A stretch of 64,000 nucleotides of DNA from Anaerolineales bacterium. GTDB lineage: Bacteria > Chloroflexota > Anaerolineae > Anaerolineales > Villigracilaceae. Below are positions 994 to 61,039 of the stretch, piece after piece (positions within the stretch are counted from its first letter, which is position 1; the number at the start of each line of letters is the position of its first letter). The translations under genes were made by a program, and so were the position numbers. The stretch is taken from positions 2,227-66,226 of the forward strand of contig JAFGSI010000011.1 of NCBI GenBank assembly GCA_016934715.1, read 5' to 3'. The notes under the pieces were generated by a model. That model was not told where the DNA came from. It searched no databases and was given only the letters and a program-made list of their open reading frames with translations.

Positions 994-1293
994 CTAGCGC
1001 CGAAAAGTTGATGTGGAAAAGGCTGAATTGCCAGCCAGGATAGAGTTGCCATACTTTTCGATCCGTTTCGCACCTGCCCAGCAGCTCGACTCCTGCCGGG
1101 GCGTGCTTTGCGCCATCGCAGCGATCACTGGCGTCTCTTGTGCCAGGATGCCGCGCACGGCCTCTGGCACCACCCGTCGCAGGCTTTCTTCCGGCAGCAA
1201 TTCAGTCATGGGCGAGAGAAACTTCTTCAACGTTTGGTCCAGTTCTTCGATCGGCATTTTGGCGAGGATGTCCATCAGCGGTATATTCAACAT
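994..1293 (-). CDS. Hypothetical small protein in a lower-GC patch; possibly the N-terminal remnant of a transposase-like gene
   Basis: I trimmed ORF 994..1371 to the ATG at 1293, which lies 7 nt downstream of AGGAGG. The product starts MLNIPLMDILAKMPIEELDQTLKKFL. I recognise no domain with confidence. Confidence 0.3.
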   Translation of the reverse strand: MLNIPLMDILAKMPIEELDQTLKKFLSPMTELLPEESLRRVVPEAVRGILAQETPVIAAMAQSTPRQESSCWAGAKRIEKYGNSILAGNSAFSTSTFRR

Positions 1294-3106: not shown

Positions 3107-3339
3107 TTTATGACCTCCTCGTCTATGTGAGAGTAAGAACGCATATTCCTGTCCTTATTATAGAGCAAAATGAGACCCGCGGGAAGATTGCCATGGCCTT
3201 CGTTCTGTGGAATAATGGGGAAAGCCGCGCGTATCCACCAGAACGCCACGGCGGGACCATTATCTTTTCCAGCGAGGCTCGTCCGGGCCCCAGGGGGGCA
3301 TCCGTCCGGAACGGCCCCTACCTATTGACGGAGGGTACC

Positions 3340-6145: not shown

Positions 6146-7660
6146 ATGACCATTCCTCCGATCATCCTGATCTATTTCTTCTACGGCCTGGCCTTCTTCA
6201 GCATGGGACTGCTGGTACTGGTCGAGGGGGGGCGGGCCCTCGACGCCCGCCTGCGGCGAGCGCTGCGCCCGCTGGCCGCCTTCGGCCTGGTCCACGCACT
6301 GCACGAATGGCTGGAGATGTTCGAGGCGATCGCCAGCCTGGACGGCGATCCCCTGCCCGACTGGCTTTTCGGTGTCCGGCTGGCCATGCTGGCCTTTTCA
6401 TTCCTGTCCCTGGGCGCCTTCGGCAGCTACCTGCTGGCAGTCTCGCGCCAGGCCTGGCGCCTGAGCCTGCTGGCGCCGCTCGGGCTGGAGGCTGTCTGGG
6501 TCTTTGGCATCCTGCTGTTGAAGAACCGCTACCCGATCCCCGACCTTTGGACAGTCGCCGACGTCTGGACCCGCTACGCCCTGGCGATCCCCAGCGCCCT
6601 GTTGGCCGCCGTCGGACTGGTCATGCAGCAGCGGGTCTTCCGCCGGGCCGGGCTGGCGACCTTTGGCCGCGATGCCCTGTGGGCAGCCGTCGCCCTGGGC
6701 TGGTACGGGTTGGTCGGCCAGATCTTCGTCCGGGCCTCGGCCCTGCCCCCCTCGAACGTGCTCAACGAGGAGCTGTTCCTGCAAATGTTTGGCATCCCGG
6801 TGCAGCTCTTCCGGGCGGTGGTGGCCGTGCTGGCCTCGGTGTTCATCATGCGCTTCCTGCGCGCTTTCCAGGTCGAGATCGACGGCCAGATTGCCCGCCT
6901 GCAGGAGGAAAAGCTCAGGGAAGCCGAACAGCGCGAGGCCCTGCGCGGCGAGATGGTCAAGCGGGTCATCGACGCCCAGGAATCTGAACGCCAGCGCATC
7001 GCCCGCGAGCTGCACGACGAAACCGGCCAGGCGCTGACCGCCATCGGCCTGGGCCTGCGCGGCCTGACGACCGCACTGCAGAGTGCCCGGCCCCGCAAGG
7101 GGACTGCAGGTCCGTCGCGCGCCGACCAGACCCTGCACCAGCTCCAGAACCTGACCGCCCATTCGCTGACCGAACTGCAGCGCCTGATCGCCGACCTGCG
7201 CCCCTCGCACCTCGACGACCTGGGCCTGCACTCAGCCCTGCGCTGGTACAGCCACGACCTGGGCGAACGGGCCGCAATCAAGGTCGAGGTGGAGTTCAAG
7301 GGCGAGGAACGCGAGCTCCCACCGCAGGTCAAGACCGCCCTGTTCCGCATCTCCCAGGAGGCCCTGACCAATGCCGTCAAACACGCCCTGGCCGATCATG
7401 TCCGGGTCACCCTGTACTACGCCCCCGAGACGGTCTCCTTGCGCATCACCGACGATGGCCAGGGCTTCGATCTGCCGGCTGCCCGCTTGAGCCAGCGTAT
7501 CTCGTGGGGATTAAAAAACATGGAGGAACGGGCCACCCTGCTGGGCGGCCGGTTCACGATCCGTTCGCGGCCCGGCCAGGGCACGACCGTGGAGATCAGC
7601 ATCCCCATCCAGGCCCCACAGGAGGAGAACGATGACGATCCGTCTGCTGCTGGTGGATGA
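6146..7660 (+). CDS. Sensor histidine kinase (HisKA_3/NarX-type) with polytopic N-terminal membrane sensor domain
   Basis: Multiple TM segments are followed by a coiled coil. The H-box is ERQRIARELHDETGQ and the HATPase_c region is DDGQGF...GLKNMEERATLLGG. It is a paralogue of the kinase at 18668..20209. Confidence 0.85.
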   Translation: MTIPPIILIYFFYGLAFFSMGLLVLVEGGRALDARLRRALRPLAAFGLVHALHEWLEMFEAIASLDGDPLPDWLFGVRLAMLAFSFLSLGAFGSYLLAVSRQAWRLSLLAPLGLEAVWVFGILLLKNRYPIPDLWTVADVWTRYALAIPSALLAAVGLVMQQRVFRRAGLATFGRDALWAAVALGWYGLVGQIFVRASALPPSNVLNEELFLQMFGIPVQLFRAVVAVLASVFIMRFLRAFQVEIDGQIARLQEEKLREAEQREALRGEMVKRVIDAQESERQRIARELHDETGQALTAIGLGLRGLTTALQSARPRKGTAGPSRADQTLHQLQNLTAHSLTELQRLIADLRPSHLDDLGLHSALRWYSHDLGERAAIKVEVEFKGEERELPPQVKTALFRISQEALTNAVKHALADHVRVTLYYAPETVSLRITDDGQGFDLPAARLSQRISWGLKNMEERATLLGGRFTIRSRPGQGTTVEISIPIQAPQEENDDDPSAAGG

Positions 7661-12010: not shown

Positions 12011-12050
12011 CCCTGCTCCTTGCAGAAATCGCTGAACGGATCCAAGAAAA

Positions 12051-18667: not shown

Positions 18668-20209
18668 ATGGCCATAAATCTTCAGGGAGTTGGTGTAAAA
18701 TACCCAATAGAGTCGCTCCTCATGTCCGGGCAAGCATTCGATCAACTGCTTTACTTCATCTACTTTGTCTATGGACTGGCCTTTTTCGGCATGGGCCTGA
18801 CCATGGCACTCGAATCGGGCCGTTCGCCGGCCCTGGCGGAGGCCCGTCTCCTGCGGCCCCTGGCCGCCTTCGGCCTGATCCACGGCTCCCACGAGTGGCT
18901 GGAGGCCTACCTGCTCCAGGCCCACGCCACCGGGGCTGCTCTGCCGGGCTGGCTGGACTGGGCCCGCTGCACAATCCTGGTGACCTCCTTCCTGTTCCTG
19001 CTCAACTACGGGATCCGCACCTTCCAGACACCCGGGTACAGACCGTTGCTCGGGATGCGCCTGGGAATCGCCGTCCTCGGGATCTACAGCCTGGTCATCC
19101 TGGCCAGCGCCATGCTGACCTACTGGAACGGCGAGGTGCCCTGGGCCCGCCTGCTCGACAGCCTGGCCCGTTACCTGCTGGCCGTGCCGGGAGCGGCCCT
19201 GGCAGCCCTGGCGCTGCGCTTCGAGTCGGACGAAGCCAGGAGCCGCGACCGCCGAACACTGTCGCTCTCCCTGACGGTGGCCGCGGCCGGCTTCGGGGTC
19301 TACAGCCTGACCCAGGTCTTCGTCCCGCCGCTGGAGATGGCCCCGGCCAGCTTCCTCAACACGCTCAGCTTCCAGAGCCTGGCCGGCTTCCCGATCCAAC
19401 TGGTGCGCTCGGCGATGGCGGTCATGATCACCCTCAGCCTGGCCCGTGCCACCCAGGAGGTCGAAAAGGAACGCCAGCAGAAGCTGGTGACCGCCCAGCA
19501 GGCCCGCCTGGAGGCCCTCGAGCAGGTCCAGGCCGAACTGACCGGACGCGAGACCTTGCGGCGTGAACTGCTGCGCCATACCGTCCGGGCCCAGGAAGAG
19601 GAGCGCGGCCGGATCGCTCGCGAGCTGCACGACGAAACCGCCCAGGTCCTGGCCGCCTTCGGCCTCGACCTGGCCACCCTGCAGACCATGCTCCCGGTCC
19701 GTCCGGACGCGCAGGCCCTGGTCGGCAGGCTGCAGGCGCACAGCCGGGAGATATCGCAGAGCCTCTACCGCCTGGTCCACGATCTGCGCCCGGCCCAACT
19801 GGACGATCTGGGTCTGGTCCCCGCCCTGGACTACCTGGGCGAGCGTGCGGCAGCCAAGGGACTGGAGCTCCGCCAGCAGATCGTGGGCGAGGTCCGCCGG
19901 CTGGAGCCCGTGATCGAGACAGTGCTCTTCCGGGTCGCCCAGGAGGCGCTCAACAACGTGGCCCGCCACGCCAGCACGAACCAGGCCGAGATTTGCCTGG
20001 TGTACGAGACTCAGGAAGTGACCCTGTGGGTTCGCGACCCGGGCCGCGGATTCAATCCCACCCAGTCCTTCATTCCACCGCGCGGCTGGGGCCTGGCCGG
20101 GATGCGCGAACGGGTCGAATCAGTCGGCGGACACTTAAAAGTTACCTCCGCCCCAGAGGAGGGAACCACCGTCGAGGTGGCCATCCCGGTCTTTGACTTG
20201 ATTCCCTGA
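18668..20209 (+). CDS. Sensor histidine kinase (HisKA_3 type), paralogue of 6146..7660 with the same membrane sensor domain
   Basis: YGLAFFGMGL...LRPLAAFGLIHGSHEWLE matches YGLAFFSMGL...LRPLAAFGLVHALHEWLE in the first kinase. The H-box is ERGRIARELHDETAQ. The start is uncertain; an alternative ATG lies at 18722. Confidence 0.85.
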   Translation: MAINLQGVGVKYPIESLLMSGQAFDQLLYFIYFVYGLAFFGMGLTMALESGRSPALAEARLLRPLAAFGLIHGSHEWLEAYLLQAHATGAALPGWLDWARCTILVTSFLFLLNYGIRTFQTPGYRPLLGMRLGIAVLGIYSLVILASAMLTYWNGEVPWARLLDSLARYLLAVPGAALAALALRFESDEARSRDRRTLSLSLTVAAAGFGVYSLTQVFVPPLEMAPASFLNTLSFQSLAGFPIQLVRSAMAVMITLSLARATQEVEKERQQKLVTAQQARLEALEQVQAELTGRETLRRELLRHTVRAQEEERGRIARELHDETAQVLAAFGLDLATLQTMLPVRPDAQALVGRLQAHSREISQSLYRLVHDLRPAQLDDLGLVPALDYLGERAAAKGLELRQQIVGEVRRLEPVIETVLFRVAQEALNNVARHASTNQAEICLVYETQEVTLWVRDPGRGFNPTQSFIPPRGWGLAGMRERVESVGGHLKVTSAPEEGTTVEVAIPVFDLIP

Positions 20210-40572: not shown

Positions 40573-40605
40573 GGCCCCGCATGCGCATGCGGGGCCTTCT
40601 TATTT
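40573..40605 (+). terminator. Rho-independent terminator after lpdA
   Basis: Perfect palindrome ggccccgcatgc/gcatgcggggcc followed by ttcttattt. Confidence 0.75.
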
Positions 40606-40676
40606 GGGATGGCTATCACCTGCTACTTGCAGAAAGAGCTGAACTGAATTGGCACGAAGCAGGTGGTAGTAAGAAA

Positions 40677-40742
40677 CTACAGAGTGCTGCGTAAATATCT
40701 AAACCAACCCCTTTCGTTTCATGGGGAAATTGGGTTTCATCT
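40677..40742 (+). repeat. 66-bp repeat, copy A (exact inverted copy at 51371..51436)
   Basis: CTACAGAGTGCTGCGTAAATATCTAAACCAACCCCTTTCGTTTCATGGGGAAATTGGGTTTCATCT. I compared it by eye with the reverse complement of 51371-51436 and found 66/66 identity. It is about 42% G+C by my count, in a GC-rich background. Confidence 0.9.
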
Positions 40743-40936
40743 AGGCGGTTTATGCAAGAAGCAGTAAATTCCACTCATCTTTTCCTCTTCCCACTGATCT
40801 CACCGCCCAAAGCGGGCAAGAAGAACCCGCATGCCGACCGCGAGCAGTTGGTGTGCTGTGGGATTGGGCTGGAGTTTCTGGTGCCCTGCGCTGGACGGAT
40901 TGGCACCATGCGGGTCCATCCAGCGCCGGACGAATG

Positions 40937-41503
40937 TCATTCGCGAGCGAATTCCACCGTGGCCAGGATGTCCAATACGTAGTCCCGTCCAAAACCGGAC
41001 CAGAGATTCGGGTCTGACGAGATATCCGCCACGCCATAGCCAAGGAAGAAGTGTTCGTCGTCGAGCGTAACCCCGACCAGGATCCCCTCCACAGGCGTGC
41101 CGCTCAGGAAGCCGGTCAACTCGATCGCCAGACCATCCAGCCCGCCCACCACGATCGCCGCGGAATCCCCGAGGTACACCTCATCCCCCTCTCCTGCAGA
41201 CAACTGCAACGCATCACGGATCAAGGACACCTGATCCCGGCCCCGGGTGTCTACCAACCAGATGTTGGTCACCAGGCCGACCCCTCCGGAGGGATAGGTG
41301 ATCTGAACAGTCCGATCACTCACAGCATAGACCGCCTCGAGGGGAATGATCAGGCTGTAACCGCCGCCCGGAACGGAGATCCGCTGGCCTTCCGGCGTGG
41401 GTGTCGGGATGGGCGTCGGCGTCGCAAACAGGTTCGCTCCGCTGCAAGACATGCTGAAGCAGACCAGCACGAGCCAAACAAGGATCATCTTTTTCCTGTT
41501 CAT
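40937..41503 (-). CDS. Hypothetical lipoprotein
   Basis: Starts at the ATG at 41503, 7 nt after AAAGGAG. The product begins MNRKKMILVWLVLVCFSMSCSG (lipobox). I recognise no domain. Confidence 0.6.
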   Translation of the reverse strand: MNRKKMILVWLVLVCFSMSCSGANLFATPTPIPTPTPEGQRISVPGGGYSLIIPLEAVYAVSDRTVQITYPSGGVGLVTNIWLVDTRGRDQVSLIRDALQLSAGEGDEVYLGDSAAIVVGGLDGLAIELTGFLSGTPVEGILVGVTLDDEHFFLGYGVADISSDPNLWSGFGRDYVLDILATVEFARE

Positions 41504-41730
41504 GAGCATTCTCCTTTGCCTTGATGGAAGAAACGAAGGTCCCTGTACCATTCTGCTCTCATTATAGAAGGGAAAATAAAAATCGAAGCAGCAATCGGCC
41601 TGCGAGTTATCCGAACTCACCGTGATGTCCGTCAGGCCGCAATTGAACCAGCAGGCCAGGAAGAGCTGGAGTACAATCCTGGGCAGGGCCTTGCAGCGAT
41701 GGAACCGGTTGCCGGCCCAAAGGAGCGCCC

Positions 41731-42618
41731 ATGCCCACCTATCCCTTCCTGCAGGCCGATGCCTTCACCGACCGCCCGCTGGGCGGCAATCCGTGTGCCA
41801 TCGTCTTCGACTGCCCGGACCTGGCACCCGAGACCATGCTGGCGGTCGCCAGAGAAATGAACCTCTCCGAGACCGCTTTCGTCTGGCGCAAGCCCGGCGG
41901 GACCTTCCGGGCCCGCTACTTCACGCCGGCCGAGGAAATCCCCCTGGCGGGACACCCGACCATCGCCACTGTCTTCGCCCTGGTTGAGACCGGGCGCCTG
42001 TCCCTGCCCGGCGATTATCTCAAGATGCCTCTCGAGCTGCGCGACGGGCCGATCGAGGTGGAGATCTTCGCCCGCCACGGCCGGGTGGACCGGGTCGTCA
42101 TGGCCCAGCGCAAGCCACAGTTCCTGCGGACCTACTCCCCCACCCAGGTCCTGCCCGTTTTCGGCCTGGACCCCGCTGGCCTGCTCCCCGGAACGATCGT
42201 CCAGACGGTCAGCACCGGGACCCCGCAGCTGTTCGCTGCGCTCCGCGATCTGGAGACCCTGCGGCGGGCCGCCGTCGACCAGGCCCGGTACGCCGTCCTG
42301 CGCGGGAAGGGGGATTTTTTCAGCACCCATCTCTTCTGCCTGCAGGGGTTCGAACGCGGCCAGACCTTCGCCCGTCACTTTGCCCTGCTGCCCGACATCA
42401 TCGAAGACCCCTTCACCGGGTCGGCCAGCGGCGGGATGGGCGCCTACCTGTGGCATTACGGCCTGATCGAGCAGCCATCCTTTCTGGCCGAGCAGGGACA
42501 CTGGCTGGGGCGCCCGGGGATCGGCAGCGTTGAAGTCGTCGGCCCGCCGGACGACATCCAGACCGTCAAGGTCGGCGGCGGGGCGGTCACCGTCCTGCGC
42601 GGGGAACTGACCCTCTAG
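41731..42618 (+). CDS. PhzF-family isomerase-like protein
   Basis: 295 aa. FLQADAFTDRPLGGNPCAIV, NLSETAFV and GHPTIAT are typical PhzF motifs. Confidence 0.85.
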   Translation: MPTYPFLQADAFTDRPLGGNPCAIVFDCPDLAPETMLAVAREMNLSETAFVWRKPGGTFRARYFTPAEEIPLAGHPTIATVFALVETGRLSLPGDYLKMPLELRDGPIEVEIFARHGRVDRVVMAQRKPQFLRTYSPTQVLPVFGLDPAGLLPGTIVQTVSTGTPQLFAALRDLETLRRAAVDQARYAVLRGKGDFFSTHLFCLQGFERGQTFARHFALLPDIIEDPFTGSASGGMGAYLWHYGLIEQPSFLAEQGHWLGRPGIGSVEVVGPPDDIQTVKVGGGAVTVLRGELTL

Positions 42619-42676
42619 GCGAAAAACGTCCCGCAAGTCAGCGGGAGGTTCAGGTTCCGGGAGCAGGCCGGCAGGA

Positions 42677-43411
42677 TCAGGTCTTTTCGATCACCCAGAA
42701 ATGCGACAGGCCGAGCCCTCTCAGGGGAGTCCGCTCCAGGAACTGCAGGAAGCCGCGCAGGGCCTTCCCCAGCGGGCCGAAACGGGCGATGAGGTTGTCG
42801 TAGGCGCCGAAGATGATGGTGCGTTCGACCAGGGAAATCGGGAAATTGGCCAGAAGGGCTTCGAGGTCACGCCGCGAATAGACCCGCACATGCGGGGCAA
42901 GTTTATCCCGCCAGGCGCGCGGCAGCCAGTTGACCAGCGGGATATTGCCGAACCTGTAATTTCCTTTCCAATAAATTCCGTGCGTCTCGAACGGGTAACC
43001 CCGGTTGGGAACGAACAGGACCAGCCGTCCGCCCGGCCTGAGGACCCGGACCATCTCGGCAACGGCGCGGTGGTCGTCCTGGACATGCTCGAGGACCTCG
43101 TGGCTGAGGATCAGGTCGAAGATCCCGGGTGGGCAGGGCAGGGCCTCCCCGGCGGCGTTGACCACCAGGGGGGCGTGGACATGGGCCTCCCGGACACGCT
43201 CGAAGTCGAACTCCAGTCCGAAGACCTGCCCGCCGAAGGGCTGCAGATGCCGGACGTACATCCCCACCCCACAACCGTTCTCGAGGATCCGGCCCGCGAT
43301 CCGCTCGCCGGCAGCCCGGGCGATCATCTGCAGACGCCGTTCCTGGCCCGCCCGCCAGACGTAAGAGGGTTCGCCACACTGGGCGGCTTTGTTGAGATCG
43401 CGGTGTTCCAT
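42677..43411 (-). CDS. Class I SAM-dependent methyltransferase
   Basis: Motif I is RILENGCGVGMY, and FDLILSHEVLEHV is Methyltransf_11-like. I chose the ATG at 43411 because TATAAT lies 7 nt upstream, which suggests a leaderless transcript. The ORF opens at 43435. Confidence 0.75.
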   Translation of the reverse strand: MEHRDLNKAAQCGEPSYVWRAGQERRLQMIARAAGERIAGRILENGCGVGMYVRHLQPFGGQVFGLEFDFERVREAHVHAPLVVNAAGEALPCPPGIFDLILSHEVLEHVQDDHRAVAEMVRVLRPGGRLVLFVPNRGYPFETHGIYWKGNYRFGNIPLVNWLPRAWRDKLAPHVRVYSRRDLEALLANFPISLVERTIIFGAYDNLIARFGPLGKALRGFLQFLERTPLRGLGLSHFWVIEKT

Positions 43412-43427
43412 GATCGTAATTATAACC

Positions 43428-43456
43428 TTGCACATCTGCCGCTTGTATGCTAGAAT
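43428..43456 (+). promoter_or_regulatory. Promoter of the nusA-infB operon (TTGCAC-17 nt-TAGAAT)
   Basis: -35 at 43428-43433, -10 at 43451-43456, with a 17-nt spacer. This leaves a ~95-nt leader before the nusA ATG at 43557. Confidence 0.5.
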
Positions 43457-43556
43457 CCCGTCCGTACGAAACCCAATACTGCACGCACCGAAAAGTGGGC
43501 AACCCCCACTTTTCTGCTTCTACCCAATATCAGTCACACACGGAGCAAGGAAAGCG

Positions 43557-45473
43557 ATGAAGAACGAGTTTGCCCTGGCCTTCAACGAGGTGCTGGAAGA
43601 GAAACAACTGCCCAAGGAGATCATCCTGTCGGCGATCGAGTCGGCGATGGTTTCGGCCTACCGGCGGGCGGTCAATGCCTCCAATGCCCAGCACGTCGAA
43701 GCCAAAGTTGACCCGGAAACGGGTCAGGTGCTGGTCTACGCCGAAAAGGAAGTCGTCGAAGACATCCAGGACGAGCGCACCGAAGTGCTGCTCGAGGTGG
43801 CCCGCGCGATCTACCCGGAGGTCAACCTGGGTGACATGGCGATCGTTGAGACGACGCCCAAGGACTTCGGACGCGTCGCCGCCCAGACCGCCCGGCAGGT
43901 CATCCAGCAGCGCATCCGCGAGGCCGAGCGCCAGGTCCAGACCGATTACTACGCCAAGCAGGTCGGCGAGATCATCAGCGGTGTGGTCCAGGCGGTCAGC
44001 ATGACCCAGGGCGTCACTGTCGGCCTGGACATGAAGGCCGAAGGCATCATGCCACCCAACCAGAAGATCCCCGGCGAGCGGTTCCGGGTCCATGACCGCG
44101 TGCGGGCCATCGTCCTGGAGGTCAAGGACAGCCCGCGTGGCCCGCAGATCATCCTGTCGCGCTCGCACCGCAATTTCCTGCGCCGCCTGCTCGAGAACGA
44201 GGTCCCCGAAATCTACCACGGAGTGGTCGAGATCCGGGCCATCTCGCGCGAGCCCGGCCAGCGTGCCAAGGTGGCCGTCTCGGCCGCCCAGCCCAACGTC
44301 GACCCGGTGGGGGCCTGCGTGGGCATCCGCGGCGTGCGCATCCAGGCGATCGTCAAGGAGCTGCACGACGAGAAGATCGACATCATCGAGTGGAACCCCG
44401 ACACGGTGATGTACATTTCAAAGGCCATCAGCCCGGCCCGCGTCGCCGGCGTCTACCTGAACGAAGCCGACAAGACCGCCACCGTCGTCGTCCAGGAGGA
44501 CCAGTTAAGCCTGGCCATCGGCCGGGACGGGCAGAACGCCCGTCTGGCAGCCAAGTTGACCGGCTGGCGGATCGACATCAAGTCGCTGGTCGAGGCCACC
44601 GCGGACTCGCTGGCCAAACTGCAGAGCGATACGACCCTGGAGGCGGTTGCCGAAAAGGAAAAGGATACTATTCCAGCCATGGAGGCGATCCTGGTCAAGA
44701 AGGACGAAGGCCGCCCACTGACGCCGGAAGAATACACCTCCATGCACCAGTTCGTCGAGCGGGTCGAACGCCGTTCGATGGAAAAGATCGCCGCCGAGGT
44801 CGCCGCGGAGGAAGAGCGCCTCTCCACCGCCCGGGCCGAAATCCCAGCGATCGCTTTCGAAACCGACGGCGAGACGCTCGGCCTGCCCGAACACGTCTAC
44901 AATATCCTGACCGAGGCCGAACTGCGCACCGTCGGTGACCTGATGCTGACGATGAAGCTCGACCCCGACAGCGTCCTGGGCCTGGCCGGTATCGGCCCCA
45001 AGGCGATGCAGGCCATCGCAGCAGCCCTGGCCGCAGTCTCCTTCCCCGAGCCCGAACCCGAGCCTGAACCGGTCGCCGAGGCTGCCGCAGTTGAGACCGC
45101 CGAAGCGCCCGCTGCAGTGACCGCTGAAGCGCCCCCCGAAGCGACCGCCGAAATCACCCCCGAAACCGCCATCGAAGCGCCTGTCGAAGTTCCCGCCGAG
45201 GCCGCGCCAGCCGTCGCGGCCGAAGAGCTCGACGACAAGGCCACCGCCGTGGAACAGCTGGAAGAGAAAGAGGAAGAATTCGAGAAGTTGTTCACGATGG
45301 AGACCGTGACCCAGGTCGCCCCGGCCAGCGAGGAAGAAGAGTCCGACGATAAAAAGAAGGACAAGAAGAAAAAGAAGAAAGACCGCCAGCTCGAATTCGA
45401 CGAAGCTCTCGGCGAAGTCGTCGCCCGCAAGAAGCACAAGCGCGGCGAAGAAGGCTGGGAAGAAGAGTGGTAA
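43557..45473 (+). CDS. nusA: Transcription termination/antitermination factor NusA with a long low-complexity C-terminal extension
   Basis: [27 protein letters not shown] is the NusA N-terminal domain, followed by S1 and KH domains ([24 protein letters not shown]). A helix-hairpin-helix region is followed by PEPEPEP and Ala/Glu repeats and a [11 protein letters not shown] tail. 638 aa in total. Confidence 0.9.
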
Positions 45474-45521
45474 TCCTACGTTAGGTCGGAGCATTCCTCC
45501 GCCCGGACGGATTGGAAGAAG

Positions 45522-45833
45522 GTGTCTGGCAAACCTGCAAAACGACCCAAGCACGTCCCGCAGCGTACCTGCGTGGGCTGCCGAACTGTGCAGCCCAAAC
45601 GAACCTTGATTCGCTTGGTACGCCGCCCCGAAGGCGTGCAGATCGATCCGACCGGCAAACTGGCCGGACGGGGAGCCTATCTGCACAATCTGCGTCCCTG
45701 CTGGGAGAAAGGCCTGCGCGGGCCTCTCGCCCATGCCCTGAAAGCCACCCTGACGCCCGAAGACCTCGAACGCCTGCAGCAGTTCAGTACCAGCCTGCCG
45801 GAGGCGGAAGATGCCACAGGCCAGGACCGGTAG
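45522..45833 (+). CDS. ylxR: YlxR/DUF448 family RNA-binding protein
   Basis: RTCVGCRTVQPKRTLIRLV...GRGAYLH. It occupies the conserved position between nusA and infB. Confidence 0.85.
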   Translation: MSGKPAKRPKHVPQRTCVGCRTVQPKRTLIRLVRRPEGVQIDPTGKLAGRGAYLHNLRPCWEKGLRGPLAHALKATLTPEDLERLQQFSTSLPEAEDATGQDR

Positions 45834-45938
45834 ACCCTTATGGGCTGATAGCTTCACCTTTTGCTCAGCAGGCACCCGCAACCGGCTCCAGACCCACCCC
45901 GCTCCCACGAGCGGAACTCTAGACACAGGAGGTGCCAC

Positions 45939-47729
<1,791 letters not shown>

Positions 47730-47817
47730 GCTCACGACTCACCCGGCCCGCTCAGCCAGCAAACCACCTTTCAGGATTGTAATTGCCTGAATCTGTTTTA
47801 TTGGGTATAAGTAAAAT

Positions 47818-48168
47818 ATGCCATCCGGTACCCGTCTCCAGCGCATTGCGGACCGTATCCGCCAGGAACTCTCGGAAATGCTGATCCAGGAGGTCAGTGA
47901 CCCGCGCCTGCACATGATCTACATCACCGATGCACGCGTGGATCGTGAACTGGCCTTCGCTGACATCTATGTTTCGGCGATCGAGGGCGCAACCCGCAGC
48001 GCCGAAATCTTGGAGGGACTGGAATCTGCCAGCGGCTTCCTGCGCCGCCTACTGGCCGCTCGTATCGAACTGCGCACCATGCCGCGCCTGCGCTTCCATT
48101 GGGACCCTACACCCGAGAACGCAGACCACATCGAGCGATTGCTGGCATCTTTACGGAAGAATGACTGA
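47818..48168 (+). CDS. rbfA: Ribosome-binding factor A
   Basis: 116 aa. RLQRIADRIRQELSEMLIQEVSDPRL is a typical RbfA N-terminus. Confidence 0.9.
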   Translation: MPSGTRLQRIADRIRQELSEMLIQEVSDPRLHMIYITDARVDRELAFADIYVSAIEGATRSAEILEGLESASGFLRRLLAARIELRTMPRLRFHWDPTPENADHIERLLASLRKND

Positions 48169-49117
48169 TCTGCAGACTGCCATTCGAGAGAAATTCCAGG
48201 CCGCCAGCCGCATCTTGATCGCCTCCCACGTCCGACCGGACGGAGACGCGATCGGTTCGCTGCTGGCCCTCGGCCTGGCCCTGCAGGATTCCGGCAAAAC
48301 GGTCCAGATGGTCCTGGCCGACGGCGTCCCGGCGACGTTCAGGCACCTGCCCGGCAGCGACCAGATCGTCCATCGCTCTGAGGGGGCCTTCGACCTGGCG
48401 GTCACAGTCGACTGCTCGGACCTGAAGCGGGTCGGCAGCGCCCTGGACGGTTACGGATCCCCAGATATCGTCATTGACCACCACGTGACCACTGAACCGT
48501 TCGGGATCCTCAACCTGGTCGAGCCGGAGGCCGTCGCCACCGCCTCGGTGCTGATCCGTTACATGCCAGCCTGGGGATTGGTCATCACGCCCCCGATCGC
48601 CGCCAGCCTGATGACCGGCCTGGTGACCGATACGCTCGGCTTTCGCACCTCCAACATCACTTCCGAGGCCCTGCGCCAGGCCGCCGACCTGCTCGACCTG
48701 GGCGTGGACATGAGCGCCCTGTACTTTCGCAGCCTGGTGCGGCGCACCTTCGCGGCCGCGCGCTACTGGGGGGCCGGCCTGTCCAGCCTGGAGCAGGCCA
48801 ACGGGATCGTCTCGGTTACCATGACCCTGGCCGATCGCAAGAGCGCCGGTTACACCGGCAACGACGATGCCGACCTGATCAACGTCGTCTCGTCGATCGA
48901 TGCCAACGAGGTCGCGATCATCTTCGTCGAACAAAACGCAGAGCACGTCAAGGTCTCATGGCGCGGACTCAAGCCTGAAATCGATGTGGCAAGGATTGCC
49001 AAGCAGTTTGGCGGCGGCGGCCACCGGGCCGCGGCCGGGGCCGAGGTGCGCGGCGGCCTGGACGAGGTCCGCGAGCGCGTCCTGCGGATCACCCGCCGGG
49101 CACTGAATGATATGTGA
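48161..49117 (+). CDS. nrnA: DHH/DHHA1 family phosphoesterase (NrnA-like oligoribonuclease/pAp phosphatase)
   Basis: ILIASHVRPDGDAIGS, VIDHH and a C-terminal GGGGHRAAAGA. It overlaps the rbfA stop. Confidence 0.8.
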   Translation: MTDLQTAIREKFQAASRILIASHVRPDGDAIGSLLALGLALQDSGKTVQMVLADGVPATFRHLPGSDQIVHRSEGAFDLAVTVDCSDLKRVGSALDGYGSPDIVIDHHVTTEPFGILNLVEPEAVATASVLIRYMPAWGLVITPPIAASLMTGLVTDTLGFRTSNITSEALRQAADLLDLGVDMSALYFRSLVRRTFAAARYWGAGLSSLEQANGIVSVTMTLADRKSAGYTGNDDADLINVVSSIDANEVAIIFVEQNAEHVKVSWRGLKPEIDVARIAKQFGGGGHRAAAGAEVRGGLDEVRERVLRITRRALNDM

Positions 49118-49176
49118 ACAACCCGCCAGCGCCCACCCTGGCGCTGGACGGTCAGATCATCAGGAGGAATTTGAAA

Positions 49177-50100
49177 ATGGAAAGTCAAGATATCAAGAAT
49201 GCCATTTCCGGGATCCTGGTCGTGGACAAGCCGATCGGGATGACCTCCCACGATGTGGTCGAGGTCATTCGGAAGGGCACCAACATCCGCCGCGCCGGCC
49301 ACACCGGTACGCTCGACCCGCGCGCCTCGGGTGTGCTCGTCGTCCTGATCGGGCCGGCGGTGCGCCTGAGCGAGTTCGTCTCGGCCTCCGACAAACGCTA
49401 CCAGGCCATCCTGCGCCTGGGCGGCACGACCGACACCTACGATGCCGACGGACGCTTCACCCGCCCGAACAGCGAGACCCCGGTGGACGTGAGCGAGGAT
49501 CAGTTCGAAGAGGTCCTGAAAGGCTTTATCGGTGAGATCGAGCAGACTCCCCCGCCCTACTCGGCGGTCAAGGTCAAGGGTCGCCGGGCCTACGACATGG
49601 CCCGCAAGGGGGAAGAGGTCGAGCTCGAACCACGCAAGATCAATGTCTACCACCTGGAGGTGCTCGAGTGGGCCCCGCCCGAGGTGGTCATCGATGTGCA
49701 CTGCTCGTCGGGCACCTATGTCCGTTCGCTGGCCAACGATCTCGGGGCAGTCCTGGGCTGCGGGGCCTACCTGGTCGGCCTGCGGCGGACCAAGTCAGGC
49801 CGCTTCAGCCTGCGCGACGCCGTGCCGCTGCGCAAGCTGCAGGAGGCCTTCACGGTCGGCAACTGGTACCAGTTCCTGATCCCGGCAGCCGAGGCCCTCA
49901 GCGATTGGGAAGCCATCGAACTCGGCCCCGATGAGGTCGAGGAGGTCAAACACGGCCACCGCGTCAAGGCTGCAGCCGATACCAAGCCCGGGCTGGTGCG
50001 CGGCGTCAGCATGGCCGGCGAACTGATCGCCATCCTGGAACTGGCCGAAGGCCAGGATGGCGCGCCGGAGTGGCAGCCCAAGAAGGTGTTCTTCTCTTAA
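49177..50100 (+). CDS. truB: tRNA pseudouridine(55) synthase
   Basis: GILVVDKPIGMTSHDVV, GHTGTLDPRASGVL. AGGAGG lies 9 nt upstream of the ATG at 49177. Confidence 0.9.
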   Translation: MESQDIKNAISGILVVDKPIGMTSHDVVEVIRKGTNIRRAGHTGTLDPRASGVLVVLIGPAVRLSEFVSASDKRYQAILRLGGTTDTYDADGRFTRPNSETPVDVSEDQFEEVLKGFIGEIEQTPPPYSAVKVKGRRAYDMARKGEEVELEPRKINVYHLEVLEWAPPEVVIDVHCSSGTYVRSLANDLGAVLGCGAYLVGLRRTKSGRFSLRDAVPLRKLQEAFTVGNWYQFLIPAAEALSDWEAIELGPDEVEEVKHGHRVKAAADTKPGLVRGVSMAGELIAILELAEGQDGAPEWQPKKVFFS

Positions 50101-50172
50101 CCCAACTTCCTCCGGAGGACGCAAAAGACACCAGGGGGCCTTGCGTTCTTCGAGACCCTGGTGTCACCGGTT

Positions 50173-51114
50173 ATGCCTCATTATCGCTTCCTCGACGCAG
50201 TCAAGCGCCAGGATACCTGGCTGACCATCGGCGTCTTCGACGGCCTCCATCGCGGCCACCGGGTCCTGTTGCAGCACCTGGTCGATGGAGCCCGGGCAGC
50301 CCACCCCGTCGGCCACCCGGTCGTGCTGACCTTCTACCCGCACCCGGCAGTCGTACTCGGCGGGCAATCCGATTTCGTCTACCTGAGCCTGCCCGACGAG
50401 AAGGCTGCCCTGCTGGAAGAAATGGGCATCGAAACGGTCATCACCATTCCCTTCGACCTCAATCTGGCCGCCGAAACCGCCCAAGCCTTTATGCAGCGCG
50501 TCTCGACCCACCTCGGGCTGCGCCATCTGCTGATCGGCCATGATTTCGCCCTCGGCCGCGGCCGGGATGGCGATGCCGCCCGCCTGGCCGAGATCGGCCG
50601 GCATTTGGGCTATACCGTCGAGGTCCTGCCGGCGGTCCATGCGCAGGACCTGGTCATTTCCTCAACCGCGATCCGCAACCTGATCCAGCGCGGCCAGGTG
50701 GCCGCAGCGGCCGCCCTGCTCGGGCGCCCGTATGCTGTCTCCGGCCCGGTCGTCCACGGCGACGGACGCGGGCGGCACATCAACATTCCCACCGCCAACA
50801 TCGCCTATCCGGCGGAAAAACTCGTCCCCGCCCACGGCATCTACGCCACCTGGGCCCTTGTCGCGGGGGTCCGCCATCCATCAGCCACCAACATCGGCAT
50901 CAACCCGACCTTCACGCCCGAGCGGCAGGGGGCCAGCCTGGAAACCCATCTCCTCGACTTCCAGGGTGACCTGTACGGGCAGACCGTGCAGATCGAATTC
51001 GTCGAGCGGCTGCGTGACGAGATGAAATTCCCATCGGTCGAGGCCCTGATCGCCCAGATCCGCAGCGACATCCAGCTGGCGAGGAAGATCCTGGGCGACA
51101 GACCCGGGGGATAA
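50173..51114 (+). CDS. ribF: Bifunctional riboflavin kinase / FMN adenylyltransferase
   Basis: LTIGVFDGLHRGHRVL, and the kinase part has GRGRHINIPTANI...THLLDF. The start could be the GTG at 50161 or the ATG at 50173. Confidence 0.9.
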   Translation: MPHYRFLDAVKRQDTWLTIGVFDGLHRGHRVLLQHLVDGARAAHPVGHPVVLTFYPHPAVVLGGQSDFVYLSLPDEKAALLEEMGIETVITIPFDLNLAAETAQAFMQRVSTHLGLRHLLIGHDFALGRGRDGDAARLAEIGRHLGYTVEVLPAVHAQDLVISSTAIRNLIQRGQVAAAAALLGRPYAVSGPVVHGDGRGRHINIPTANIAYPAEKLVPAHGIYATWALVAGVRHPSATNIGINPTFTPERQGASLETHLLDFQGDLYGQTVQIEFVERLRDEMKFPSVEALIAQIRSDIQLARKILGDRPGG

Positions 51115-51370
51115 TACCCGTCCGGAGAGATCCCCTGTGCAGGTACGACGACAAGATACCACCAGACAGGAACCTGGAAGAACCGCACGGCCAAGACCAT
51201 AGTTCCCCTTTCAGGGTCCTGTATGGTGGCTGCGGGTCCGGCGCCGGCACTTTCCAGAGGCCCCCGCAGGCGACAAAACGACACCCCTTCCGTCTGCTGA
51301 ACTGGCTCAGGTCCAGGCGCTCCCCAAGAGAAACAGAAAACTACTGCTGCTTGCATAAATCGCTTAACGA

Positions 51371-51436
51371 GATGAAACCCAATTTCCCCATGAAACGAAA
51401 GGGGTTGGTTTAGATATTTACGCAGCACTCTGTAGA
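51371..51436 (-). repeat. 66-bp repeat, copy B (exact reverse complement of 40677..40742)
   Basis: The plus strand reads agatgaaacccaatttccccatgaaacgaaaggggttggtttagatatttacgcagcactctgtag. It lies in the ribF-thyX intergenic gap. Confidence 0.9.
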
Positions 51437-51549: not shown

Positions 51550-51578
51550 TTGACGTGCAGGGCATTTTCGTCTATAGT
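51550..51578 (+). promoter_or_regulatory. Near-consensus promoter (TTGACG-17 nt-TATAGT) giving a leaderless thyX mRNA
   Basis: The -10 box ends at 51578 and the ATG is at 51586, 7 nt later, with no RBS. Confidence 0.55.
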
Positions 51579-53009: not shown

Positions 53010-53035
53010 GCCCTGCCGATCTGGCAGGGCTTTTT
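53010..53035 (+). terminator. Rho-independent terminator after thyX
   Basis: An 8-bp stem (gccctgcc / ggcagggc) with loop gatct, followed by ttttt. Confidence 0.7.
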
Positions 53036-53380
53036 CCGGCTCCTTGCAGGAAACCCTGAACGGAAGTTGCCGCGAAGCGGGTGGCCGCAAGGATTTCGAT
53101 TCGGCTCCATACGCAGCATTCCCCAATCCCGGGATCCCTGGTCGTGAAAGGCGGGGTCCGGAGGAGCGAAACCCGCCAGAATGCCGAAGCCGATGAGCGC
53201 AGGATCGCCAGCCGGAACAGTCCCCTGAAGACCTGCCCCAGAATCCCGGACGATTCCCCTGACCTACTACCGGACAACTGTGAGATGCCCGGCACCCTGA
53301 CCGTGACCGGGGTCAGGCAGGATTGGATCGCCTCCAGGGTCCAGGCACTTGGAGCGACGGGCCTGGGTTCGCGATCGAGA

Positions 53381-57783: not shown

Positions 57784-58820
57784 CGCATTCTCCTTCGGGG
57801 AACAGGCTGGGTGGTTTCGAGGACACGCACGAACGTGCCCTGTGACTCTTCAAGGATGTAGTGCTGACCGGGCGGGACCTGGGGCATGGTCCAGCGGTAG
57901 ATCCACAGGGCATCCTGCGGGCGCAGGTTGATGCAGCCGTGGCTGCGCGGAGCACCGTAATCATTATGCCAGAAAGTGCCGTGGAAGGAAATCCCGTTGT
58001 CGGTGATGTAGGTGTTCCAGGGAACCCCGGCCAGGTCGTAGAAGGTGGTCGAACCATCGCCGCCGACCATGTGGGCGGTCGGGCGCTTATGGAAGGTCCG
58101 GAACCAGCCGGAGGGGGTGAAGAACTCATTCTTGCCGGTGGCAGTACGGGCCGAGAAGACCAGCTCGTCGCCTTCGAAGGCCAGCACCAACTGCGAGTCC
58201 AGGCGGACTTCGATGTACTTGTCCTCCGGCGGGACGTGCGCCGATAGGGGGAACAGTTCCTCGGACGCCAGGATGCGCACGTGCTCCGGCCGGACGTAGT
58301 AATAGGCCGGATAGAGGTGGTCGTAGGCCTTGTACCACAGGCTGCCGTCGCGTTCGTCGATAACGGTCTCTTCGATGTAATGGCTGGTGGCATAGTACAA
58401 CTTCGGGCCGGCGAACGGACGTCGGTTGATCGCCCACCACGACTCGGTCCACGGGACGGTCACCTCGCCGATCAGGCCCCCCGCGGGGATCTCGGCCAGG
58501 GCGCGGTTAAGGACGTTGTCAACCGGCTGGACGCCGCCCGAGTGGACGTAGCCCTGTTCCCCGATCCGGTACCAGGTCCGGTTGGTATCATCCCATTCCC
58601 CGCCGGGGAGCTGTTCGCTGACCTCGAGCAGGGTGTCAAAGCGAAAGGTTCCCAGGCGGCCGGCGTCCCGGTGTGGGGCGCTGTACAAGCGGATGCTGCT
58701 GTAGGCCACCCGGCCCAGCATGGCGGTCCCTTCGGCGTGCGCCGGGAAGGCATGTTCGGCAAGCAGGGCTGCCAGCATCCCGGCCCCGCTGAGTTTGAGG
58801 AAATCACGTCGTGTCAGCAT
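57780..58820 (-). CDS. L,D-transpeptidase (YkuD domain) with Tat signal and SH3-like N-terminal domain
   Basis: MLTRRDFLKLSGAGMLAAL is a Tat-type signal. The catalytic region is ISFHGTFWHNDYGAPRSHGCINL. Confidence 0.85.
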   Translation of the reverse strand: MLTRRDFLKLSGAGMLAALLAEHAFPAHAEGTAMLGRVAYSSIRLYSAPHRDAGRLGTFRFDTLLEVSEQLPGGEWDDTNRTWYRIGEQGYVHSGGVQPVDNVLNRALAEIPAGGLIGEVTVPWTESWWAINRRPFAGPKLYYATSHYIEETVIDERDGSLWYKAYDHLYPAYYYVRPEHVRILASEELFPLSAHVPPEDKYIEVRLDSQLVLAFEGDELVFSARTATGKNEFFTPSGWFRTFHKRPTAHMVGGDGSTTFYDLAGVPWNTYITDNGISFHGTFWHNDYGAPRSHGCINLRPQDALWIYRWTMPQVPPGQHYILEESQGTFVRVLETTQPVPRRRMR

Positions 58821-58832
58821 ATCCCTACTCTC

Positions 58833-59849
58833 TCATACATGGATGTCGACCGCTGTCCCGGTGCCGGGCCGGTAGACCGACTGGGTCTGCGGGGTGAGCA
58901 CCGGCTCGGTCCACAGGTAGAGCCACTTGGCCGCCTGGGGGGTCAGGTTGATGCAGCCGTGGCTGCGCGGCCGGCCGTAGTCGTTGTGCCAGTAGGTGCC
59001 ATGGAACGAGACCCCATTGTCATTGATATAGCTCACCCACGGGACCCCCGGCAGGTCATAGCCAGTACCGGCCATGTGCCGGGATGGTCGCTTGCGAAAG
59101 GTCGTGAAGCGTCCGGCCGGGGTGGCGTAGACTCCTTCACGAACGCGAAAGCCGGACGAAGCCCGGGCGAAGAAGACCATCCGCTCGCCCTCGTAGGCGT
59201 AGACGATCTGTTCGCCCAGAGAGACTTCGATGCGCTTCTGGGCGTTGGGGACCTCCGGGGCGAGCGGGGCCAGCTCCTCGGGCGGGATCAGGCGCAGGTG
59301 TTCGGCCGGCAGGTAGGAATAAGTGCTCCACTTGTCGTCATAGATCTTGTAGTAAACCTGACCTTCCCGGTCTTCGACCGCCTCCATGACCCAGTGGGTG
59401 GTGGCGTAGTACATCCGGTAGGTCACCGCCGAGCCCGGGGAGGGCCCCCGGCGGGCGTCGCTGAAGGGCACGGTCATCTCGGCCAGCTGGCCGCCGCGCG
59501 GCAGGTCGCTGACCGGCGTGTTGAGGTGGGTCGCCACCGGCTGGACGCCGCCGGAAAAGACGTAGCCCTCCGCTCCCAGGCGGTACCAGACCCGGTTGTA
59601 GGCCTGCAGGTCAGCGCTGATGACGATCTCGCTGACCGCCAGCAGGCTGTCCCGGCTGCAGGTATGGAGCACAGGCGCCTGGCTGGAAGGTTCGCTGCGG
59701 ACCTCGACCTGGCTCTCTGCGACGCGGCCCAGCAGGAGATCCTCGGCCCGGGCCGGGGCGGCCAGCGCGGCGGGCAGGCACAAGCCGAGCAGCCCCGCGC
59801 CGCTCACTTTCAGGAAATCGCGCCGGGAGAAGGGGGATGCGGGAACCAT
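58833..59849 (-). CDS. L,D-transpeptidase (YkuD domain) with Tat signal, paralogue of 57780..58820
   Basis: ATG at 59849. The N-terminus is SRRDFLKVSGAGLLGL and the catalytic region is VSFHGTYWHNDYGRPRSHGCINL. The architecture is collinear with the neighbouring paralogue. Confidence 0.85.
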   Translation of the reverse strand: MVPASPFSRRDFLKVSGAGLLGLCLPAALAAPARAEDLLLGRVAESQVEVRSEPSSQAPVLHTCSRDSLLAVSEIVISADLQAYNRVWYRLGAEGYVFSGGVQPVATHLNTPVSDLPRGGQLAEMTVPFSDARRGPSPGSAVTYRMYYATTHWVMEAVEDREGQVYYKIYDDKWSTYSYLPAEHLRLIPPEELAPLAPEVPNAQKRIEVSLGEQIVYAYEGERMVFFARASSGFRVREGVYATPAGRFTTFRKRPSRHMAGTGYDLPGVPWVSYINDNGVSFHGTYWHNDYGRPRSHGCINLTPQAAKWLYLWTEPVLTPQTQSVYRPGTGTAVDIHV

Positions 59850-59851
59850 GG

Positions 59852-61039
59852 TCAGTAATGAACCGTCACCCGGGTACCGACCGAGGCAAAATCGAACAGC
59901 CAGGCCGCATCGGGTGTGCGCATGTTGACACAGCCGTGGCTCATCGGCGTCCCGAAGTTGTTGTGCCAGTAGGTGCCATGGATGCCGTACCCTTCGTAGA
60001 AATACATGGTATAGGGCACATTGGGCAGGTAATAGCCCGGTCCCCACATGTTGGCGGAGACATACTTGACATAAATATAGAATGTCCCGGTGACGGTCGG
60101 GGTCTGGTAGGTTCCGGTCGAGACGACGAAACTGGCGATCAAGGTGTTCCCCTCCCAGGCGTACAGGCGCTGATCGGAGAGGTCGATCTCGATCCAGCGC
60201 TCGCCGCCGGAGGAGACCGGGGGGGCCTCGGTCGGAGGGACATAGGGCAGCCCGGTGGAGGTTGGCCAGGGAGTAAGAGTCTCGGTCGGGGTATCGGTGA
60301 TCGTCGGCGTGAGAGTGGCCGTGGGCGTCTCGGTCGGGGTGAAAGTCGCCGTGGCCGTGGCGGTCGCCGTGGGCGTGGCGGTCGGGGTGGCGGTGGGGGT
60401 TTCCGTGAGGGTCGGGGTATAGGTTGGTTTGGCCACCTCGGCGTAACCCCCGGGCAGGGTCGCCGTGGCCTCGACCGGGACGCCGCTGCCCAGCAGGACG
60501 GCCAGGGCCGTGGAGGCATTGCCCGGCCAGAAGGCCCAGACGGCCGCCAGGCAGGCGATGGTCAACAGCAGGATCGGCCACCAGGTGAGCTTGCGCCCTG
60601 TCACGCTGCGGGCCGGGGCCTGCCGGGGAACCGCCACCCCCTGGAGGTCACGGCCCCGGGATGGTGGCTGCCCGGAGGGAGGGGCGACGGGTCGCGCCGG
60701 CGGTTGGGTCCGAACCGGCTGGGTGGAGGCCGGCACAACCTTGCGCGGCTGGGTATCCTGCTCCTGGCGAGATTCCTCTGCACGCAGGCGTTCGAGGGCC
60801 CAGGCCATCCCCTGGTGCGCGCGGGCACTGTTTGGGTCGATGCGCAACGCCCGCTCGATGCAGGCCACGCTGACGCGCGGGTTGGAGACCACCGCCATGA
60901 TCAGCCAGGGGTCTACCAGATCAGGGGCCAGGGAGGCCGCCTGCTCGGCCCAGCGCCGGGCAGCCTGAGAATCGCCGCGCTGCAAGGCCTGACGGGCGTT
61001 GTGGAGGGCCTGCTGGGCGGTAGACACTTCGGGGATCAT
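59852..61039 (-). CDS. Membrane-anchored L,D-transpeptidase with cytoplasmic TPR-like N-terminus and PT-repeat linker
   Basis: TM segment LTWWPILLLTIACLAAVWAF, linker TPTATPTATPTATATATATFTPTETPTA, and catalytic region GIHGTYWHNNFGTPMSHGCVNM. Confidence 0.85.
   Translation of the reverse strand: MIPEVSTAQQALHNARQALQRGDSQAARRWAEQAASLAPDLVDPWLIMAVVSNPRVSVACIERALRIDPNSARAHQGMAWALERLRAEESRQEQDTQPRKVVPASTQPVRTQPPARPVAPPSGQPPSRGRDLQGVAVPRQAPARSVTGRKLTWWPILLLTIACLAAVWAFWPGNASTALAVLLGSGVPVEATATLPGGYAEVAKPTYTPTLTETPTATPTATPTATATATATFTPTETPTATLTPTITDTPTETLTPWPTSTGLPYVPPTEAPPVSSGGERWIEIDLSDQRLYAWEGNTLIASFVVSTGTYQTPTVTGTFYIYVKYVSANMWGPGYYLPNVPYTMYFYEGYGIHGTYWHNNFGTPMSHGCVNMRTPDAAWLFDFASVGTRVTVHY

Follow-up and report, generated by a model that had tools for sequence, protein, structure and literature searches.

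A dispersed MITE-like element family of Anaerolineales as the probable origin of an inverted repeat pair flanking the nusA-infB operon

Abstract

We describe a family of short dispersed repeats that very probably accounts for a perfect 66-bp inverted repeat lying on either side of the nusA-infB-rbfA-nrnA-truB-ribF operon in a 64,000-nt stretch of DNA from an Anaerolineales bacterium (assembly GCA_016934715.1, contig JAFGSI010000011.1, positions 2,227 to 66,226; hereafter, the window). In this interpretation, which we hold with high confidence, the two arms of the inverted repeat are two insertions of a ~92-bp non-autonomous element resembling a miniature inverted-repeat transposable element (MITE), with ~27-bp imperfect terminal inverted repeats. 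An earlier note on the window had offered three explanations for the pair, namely paralogous genes for small or regulatory RNAs, substrates for inversion of the intervening segment, and copies of a MITE-like dispersed element, and it is the last of these that the data bear out, through matches on at least 120 metagenome contigs, presence/absence differences between relatives, nested and decayed copies, and the match of both window copies to a family profile. Since this AT-rich repeat is scattered through the intergenic regions of Anaerolineales, its position beside the nusA-infB operon, and the flanking of that operon by two copies, is most likely incidental.

Results

The inverted pair has no close rival in the window. 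Positions 40677-40742 are the exact reverse complement of positions 51370-51435 (66 of 66 bases, by repeat scan of the window and by direct string comparison), the runner-up inverted pair in the 64 kb being 44 nt long at 73% identity, and the 37-nt core of the 66-mer occurs at these two sites only, with zero chance matches expected from 100 shuffles. The perfect match had been recognized in the earlier note, which placed the right arm one base off, at 51371-51436. The weaker similarity that it described further inward is also real: once the 1-nt offset is corrected, 40749-40770 agrees with the reverse complement of 51338-51359 at 19 of 22 positions, against about 20 of 22 as first reported. 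Also borne out are the low G+C content (42.4% for the 66-mer versus 64.9% for the window), the hairpin AAACCAACCCC/GGGGAAATTGGGTTT, and the location of both copies, pointing inward, in gaps without a credible gene.

A BLAST comparison of the window copies with relatives returned a third element (L010:13062-13155, minus strand; contigs are designated here by L numbers), in which the ends are conserved and the middle is different. The shared ends were used to define a family pattern, CTGCGTAAATAT-N35-65-TTTATGCAAG, which was scanned over a metagenome collection and matched at least 120 contigs; among the matches listed, the matched span is exactly 75 nt in 98 of 126. The dozens of scattered copies that the earlier note had set against a special role for the pair were therefore found. 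An alignment of 111 unique copies yields the family consensus TTACAGAGTACTGCGTAAATATyTGAACC-(about 38 variable nt)-AGTTCAGAnATTTATGCAAGrAGCAGTAa, with nearly invariant arms around a centre that falls into several unrelated subfamilies. Alignment positions left free by the search pattern are also conserved at more than 85-95%, and the edges are sharp, conservation being lost within about four bases outside the element on each side. The outer ~27 nt on each side, TGCGTAAATATCTGAAC and GTTCAGAGATTTATGCA, constitute imperfect terminal inverted repeats, in which 89% of cells across the 111 copies are paired between columns 12-28 and columns 69-85, against 94% for the termini ACAG/CAGT, and which include a fixed A:G mismatch and a fixed G:T pair. 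Element length is 91-95 nt.

The element carries no start codon with a ribosome-binding site, and on either strand stop codons interrupt two frames of three within the first ~30 nt. One frame (TAC AGA GTA CTG CGT AAA ...) is uninterrupted in many copies up to the terminal TAA/TAG, with the same arrangement on the reverse strand, and the family alignment places stops for the remaining two frames within the 5' arm; any gene that the element clips can therefore be terminated by it, as in L091. Coding potential was considered on account of the open frame and rejected: the frame is open in 49 of 111 copies, compared with 33 ± 4 when the centre is shuffled, but the copies are non-independent, the reverse strand behaves alike and there is no start signal. 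Several generic features of a MITE are present: the element is short and non-coding, is bounded by terminal inverted repeats and shows orthologous presence/absence with precise borders. A typical copy has no BLAST match in plasmid and phage collections, and a search of a literature collection by sequence strings and by topic returned nothing on this element or on MITEs in Anaerolineae, so that the family appears to be undescribed, although of a known kind. A pattern restricted to the hairpin of the window subfamily (AACCAACCCC-N9-13-GGGGAAATTGG) gave five genome matches in Paenibacillus and Anabaenopsis, which were set aside as chance matches to the pattern only.

A family profile of 97 positions was built from 113 unique copies and searched with nhmmer, locating the following copies and remnants in the window:

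40677..40768, plus strand: left copy, full-length element of ~92 nt (profile positions 2-96 of 97, E = 2.2e-15)
About 40679-40705 and about 40738-40765, plus strand: 5' arm and 3' arm, respectively, of the left copy (from sequence and family alignment)
51341..51435, minus strand: right copy, full-length, in opposite orientation (profile positions 2-95, E = 2.9e-17)
53035..53118, minus strand: full-length copy, old and decayed, just beyond the 3' end of thyX (profile positions 10-94, E = 0.01; the weakest assignment)
40620..40659, minus strand: 3'-half remnant (profile positions 53-92; E = 3e-4 when the window was searched, 4.9e-7 against a 214-nt target)
12013..12043, minus strand: short 3'-arm remnant, TTTCTGCAAGGAGCAG (profile positions 62-92, E = 9e-4, and regular-expression match; a weak assignment)

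Since the profile matches both window copies end to end, the 66-mer of the earlier note is best read as the 5' arm plus centre of a full element, and the weaker similarity as its 3' arm. The strict mobile unit of the left copy, ACAG...CAGT, is probably 40679-40765, with T and A on its flanks; its centre holds the subfamily-specific hairpin mentioned above, and its flanks, AAC-TA...TA-AAT, agree with the family target consensus WWY-TA-RWW. In the right copy the strict unit runs from 51433 to 51343 and the flanks, ATC-TA...TA-GTT, agree with the same consensus. Its first 66 nt (51435-51370) are those of the left copy, and between the 66-mer and the end of the element the two copies are separated by one 4-nt indel, a TCGT insertion in the 3' arm of the right copy, and three substitutions.

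The remaining copies give the family an age structure within the window, one decayed full copy and two fragments standing beside the two intact copies. The decayed copy aligns as TGCTGCGTA...GAATCGAAATCC...GTTCAGGGTTTCCTGCAAGGAGC and has drifted towards genome composition (60.7% G+C, versus 42-43% in the two intact copies), which suggests long residence of the family in this lineage. The 3'-half remnant (AGTTCAGCTCTTTCTGCAAGTAGCAG) lies about 18 nt upstream of the left copy in opposite orientation. Nesting of the left copy within an older one was considered here and rejected, as in-silico removal of the left copy did not lengthen the match at 40620-40659.

Presence/absence polymorphism is documented at orthologous sites. 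L010 is filled where L011, whose flanks are 100% identical, and L114 are without the element; the empty site reads AAAT-TA-ATCATG in L011 and the filled site AAAT-TA-CAGGG...GCAG-TA-ATCATG in L010. The second site, CAATCT-TA-ATAAGA, is empty in L084 and filled in L035. Copies are also found nested within one another, as in L100, whose host copy is uninterrupted in L066, a third pair that differs by presence/absence. At least 13 such structures were detected, with varied inner and host subfamilies, all at one host position just after the 5' arm (...GAACC^AAAAT...) and always in the orientation of the host copy, and L103 contains a 20-nt internally deleted mini-derivative in a TA of another copy's 3' arm.

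The insertion in L010 has a local consequence of its own. In a conserved 143-aa gene the element has taken the place of the native ribosome-binding region, and its 3' arm now gives AAGGAG, 8 nt before the ATG of that gene (L010:13062-13155, minus strand, versus L011:7656-7658); L011, without the element, uses a GGAG further upstream.

Family copies occupy gaps between tandem, convergent and divergent genes, and are oriented almost at random with respect to them: they share the strand of the downstream gene in 60 cases and oppose it in 38, and for the upstream gene the figures are 52 and 46, respectively. The flanking DNA of the matches contains one additional full copy per 31 kb, comparable to the window, which points to about one copy for every 30 kb of an Anaerolineales genome. 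Neighbouring copies on one contig share orientation in 16 cases and are opposed in 5. An integron attC-like site, suggested by AAC...GTT motifs and cluster-like arrangements, was also considered and rejected, the motifs lying at the inner ends of the arms and the copies lying between housekeeping genes in both orientations.

Insertion sites carry a symmetric, AT-rich flank preference, WWY-T|A-RWW, and the two clean empty/filled pairs (L010/L011 and L035/L084) are compatible with duplication of a TA, as in IS630/Tc1-mariner-type elements; no target duplication longer than TA exists. We propose that an enzyme encoded elsewhere would mobilize the family in trans, recognizing the arms ACAGrGTACTGCGTAAATATyTGAAC and GTTCAGAnATTTATGCAAGrAGCAGT and inserting the unit into AT-rich targets of roughly palindromic form, WWY-T^A-RWW. 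By this mechanism the left copy would have entered the gap after lpd and the right copy the gap between ribF and thyX in independent events, and the 66/66 identity would arise because both copies come from the same young subfamily.

Several observations weigh against this interpretation, or against parts of it. All four differences between the two window copies fall in the last 30 nt, an arrangement with a chance probability of about 0.01 under uniformity, and this clustering is a hint that mosaicism or gene conversion, and not simple divergence, is responsible. The copy number of the subfamily in the source genome stands at two intact copies in the 64 kb surveyed. The nested insertions, some 13 in number, have the host C (CA) at their left and a TA at their right only, which would fit duplication-free entry of the unit ACAG...CAGT at a point between Y and A; insertion of this kind is atypical for MITEs moved by DDE-type transposases. 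Finally, the 684 kb of flanking DNA, a small search space, contain no pairs of arms at the 0.5-3 kb spacing of an insertion sequence (IS), no enriched transposase family and no autonomous copy with the same ends.

Two kinds of IS found beside family copies, neither with the ends of the element, were examined as candidate parents and rejected. In L031 and L101 an rve-type (integrase-core) IS adjoins family copies at their 3' end, with homology that starts exactly at the element border (L031:280-1535, L101:1665-2117, L051:6425-7700), but the intact L051 copy of this IS has inverted repeats of its own, GTATCGTTGCCTCAAA. In both L031 and L101 the IS is truncated at the 3' border of the element and the left flanks are different, so that the element beside the IS appears to mark the site of a truncation or rearrangement, as opposed to an end of the IS itself. 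Genes of IS110 type (DEDD), whose elements target palindromic repeats, lie ~0.1-1.2 kb from copies in L086 (4274-5533) and L108 (694-1854) with no consistent junction.

Whether or not the target is duplicated bears on the choice between a DDE transposase and an HUH-type enzyme, and the nested copies bring into consideration a variant of the same explanation that differs in mechanism alone. In a REPIN-like or terminal-inverted-repeat system, a single-copy, vertically inherited HUH/Y1 transposase (RAYT-like or TIRYT-like) would move a single-stranded hairpin, in place of a DDE enzyme acting on duplex DNA. We regard this variant as rather unlikely, although several features would be expected of it: nested insertions occur without target duplication, always in the orientation of the host copy and always at the junction between the 5' arm and centre of the host, that is, at the foot of the hairpin; neighbours on the same contig share orientation by 16 to 5; and the family persists across a whole order, decayed copies included. 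Y1 transposase genes with long flanking inverted repeats, accompanied by moderately abundant repeat families, have been described (PMC3733652). The symmetric flank preference, in contrast, is what a dimeric enzyme acting on duplex DNA would produce, the arms are not palindromes with a 5' GTAG tag and in this differ from REPs, neighbours in opposite orientation do occur, and no Y1 transposase or RAYT gene was identified, no systematic search for RAYT having been made. An extension of this variant, to be entertained as a minority view, would make the family a Chloroflexota counterpart of REPINs: an order-wide, long-persisting hairpin repeat moving as single-stranded DNA through a resident HUH/Y1-type enzyme, with duplication-free insertion between Y and A, nesting at the hairpin foot of other copies in the same orientation, and frequent service as a rearrangement breakpoint, possibly including the differences in gene content between lpd and thyX among related genomes.

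We now turn to the proposal that the pair of repeats is a substrate for homologous or site-specific inversion of the 10.6-kb segment, such that the operon would be flipped in a regulated or recurrent manner. The left copy has the lpd terminator (40573-40596) on one side and, on the other, the 3' end of a lipoprotein gene, whose stop (40937) is 169 nt away; the right copy lies between the ribF stop (51114), at a distance of 227 nt, and a promoter-like site of thyX (51550-51578). Pfam assigns the gene order as lpd to the left of the left copy, followed by the lipoprotein gene (minus strand), a PhzF-like gene (plus strand) and a methyltransferase gene (minus strand), with NusA, IF2, RbfA, a DHH-family protein and TruB in the remainder of the scanned block; beyond it lie RibF and ThyX. 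The ThyX of the window has an identical counterpart in an Anaerolineales MAG, after which identity among relatives drops to about 74%. An exact-protein look-up of RibF with two alternative start codons found neither form on record. The Logan contig of run SRR13394437 that bears thyX starts within the repeat; a contig ending at a repeat is a usual outcome of short-read assembly.

Inversion of this segment we judge very improbable. The 66 identical inverted bases are longer than the minimum generally given for RecA-dependent exchange, and rare inversion by this route may occur; family copies also coincide with rearrangement breakpoints elsewhere (the mosaic locus of L035 versus L103, and the differing left flanks of L031 versus L101, where the copies appear to be the breakpoints). 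In L010 and L132, moreover, lpd or thyX stands beside other genes instead of the nusA block, with breakpoints near the positions of the window copies; L010 differs from the window at the lpd and thyX borders of the block, a coincidence that is no more than suggestive. Against these points, the order nusA..ribF followed by thyX is found in the same orientation in the window and in five relatives (L007, L009, L133, L091 and the P0006 contig), with no inverted arrangement among them; no recombinase was detected among the genes of the segment scanned with Pfam, which were all but ribF, and the ribF translation aligns with the FAD_syn/Flavokinase gene of relatives; and a generic dispersed repeat of the observed density would by chance alone form inverted pairs 10 kb apart.

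Nor does the distribution of copies among relatives support the view of the operon as a unit bracketed by the repeats. No element copies were found in the 15-21 kb available for L007, L009, L132 and L133; the first, second and last of these keep the nusA..ribF-thyX order without the element, and L132 has neither the nusA block nor the element, belonging with L010 and L011 to a second class of arrangements in which the block is missing beside thyX. In other relatives, copies occupy different positions in or around the operon: L026 has copies associated with the nusA-infB and infB-rbfA spacers (826-919, 3157-3251 and 5347-5395, all on the minus strand), L091 has one between the DHH gene and truB (1108-1202, plus strand), where the element provides the DHH stop codon, and L012 has one upstream of the methyltransferase gene (5337-5430, plus strand). 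The copies in L026 and L091 are co-oriented with the nusA-infB-rbfA-DHH-truB operon. With copies elsewhere in the operon in some relatives and none in others, the window copies are therefore seen as independent insertions into permissive gaps.

Two side observations concern these loci. Of roughly 100 matches listed, about three independent ones lie within this operon, against ~0.3 expected, an enrichment that was noted post hoc and is uncertain. At the orthologous loci L035:1764-2251 and L103:6478-6771, one of the two (L035 or L103) holds a single copy, and its counterpart consists of a copy of another subfamily, 107 nt of unrelated DNA and the original copy.

The element could also be regarded as a multicopy small RNA gene or a cis-acting RNA motif in which a conserved stem closes a variable loop region, in line with the suggestion in the earlier note of two paralogous small or regulatory RNA genes. 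This proposal fares poorly, and we give it very little credence. In its favour, the arms are strongly conserved across genomes whose ThyX is only ~70-75% identical to that of the window, the L026 and L091 copies lie in sense orientation inside the nusA operon and on that arrangement would necessarily be transcribed there, and the L010 copy places the AAGGAG of its 3' arm 8 nt ahead of the next gene's start codon. Yet Rfam 15 returned no match, whether for the window (gathering thresholds), for the gap that holds the left copy (permissive E-values) or for typical members of the family; minimum free energy z-scores for single sequences are not significant relative to shuffled sequences (-0.5, -0.9 and -0.2); and RNAalifold returns no consensus fold for the 111 copies (-1.5 kcal/mol, with three trivial pairs). 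Arm pairing amounts to 90.0%, versus 89.7% when the 3' letters are shuffled among sequences, and the covariation score to 0.059 versus 0.056. As pairing and covariation are no better than in the shuffles, the arms are conserved as sequence, in the manner of protein-binding terminal repeats, and not as a compensated helix. There is no promoter-like site at the left copy, the right-hand gap contains only candidates upstream of thyX, and the only terminator-like sites are those of neighbouring genes. The near-random orientation relative to neighbouring genes likewise speaks against an RNA function, and presence/absence between near-identical strains, nesting and decay are traits of mobile DNA. 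A cis-regulatory 5' leader, prompted by the L010 copy, was rejected for related reasons: the window orthologue of the downstream gene (57199-56804), L007 and L009 are without the element, the L011 site is empty, and the near-random orientation rules out such a role.

Other repeats were noted in the window. Three tandem paralogous genes of YkuD type (L,D-transpeptidase) at 57813-60235 (minus strand), in a cluster beside thyX that is conserved in relatives, are the source of the direct repeats D3, D5 and D12. Paralogous stretches at 6263-7367 and 18851-19843 (plus strand), with 78-94% identity over 30-100 nt (repeats D7, D8 and D17), are probably two related genes. A run of GT-rich repeats with a 12-nt period at 60279-60434 (plus-strand coordinates; GTGGCGGTCGGG-like), which also resembles positions 110-432, probably encodes a low-complexity region on one strand.

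Discussion

The interpretation of the pair as two MITE-like insertions implies that an essential transcription and translation operon does not sit within a device dedicated to its inversion or regulation, and that a common repeat has come to lie in the neighbouring gaps. The family is abundant across uncultured Anaerolineales from sediments and wetlands, where it breaks short-read assemblies, marks rearrangement breakpoints and offers a marker for strain typing; it can also give neighbouring genes stop codons and Shine-Dalgarno sequences. The combination of TA-flanked sites with duplication-free nesting makes the identity of the mobilizing enzyme a small question of interest.

The closest analogues of the family are the Correia elements and RUP, followed by REPINs and the terminal-inverted-repeat families associated with Y1 transposases. 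Correia elements (CREE/NEMIS) of Neisseria are ~100-150 bp long, have ~26-bp terminal inverted repeats and TA flanks, occur in a hundred or more intergenic copies, comprise internally differing subtypes and show presence/absence polymorphism among strains; to our knowledge, no cognate transposase has been identified for them. The family described here is likewise short and non-coding, with terminal inverted repeats, TA flanks, intergenic location, subtypes and presence/absence differences, and no cognate transposase was found for it in this analysis; it differs in its unrelated sequence, in its host phylum, Chloroflexota, and in having nested copies without the left TA. With RUP and other MITEs derived from IS630/Tc1-mariner elements it shares a length of ~100 bp, a TA on both sides, a single TA at the empty site and an AT-rich palindromic target. 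The ends of RUP, however, match IS630-Spn1, whereas no matching IS was found for the present family in the 684 kb of flanks, and the insertions at C^A keep the right TA only, against strict TA duplication. Compared with REPs, the arms are not individually palindromic and GTAr/yTAC lies at the outer 3' side of each arm, not 5' of the REP stem, and no RAYT was identified, in an analysis that included no systematic RAYT search. The likeness to REPIN/RAYT systems and Y1-associated terminal-inverted-repeat families (PMC3733652) lies in the hairpins, the intergenic location, the abundance and long persistence of the repeats, the lack of an obvious target duplication and the tendency to cluster.

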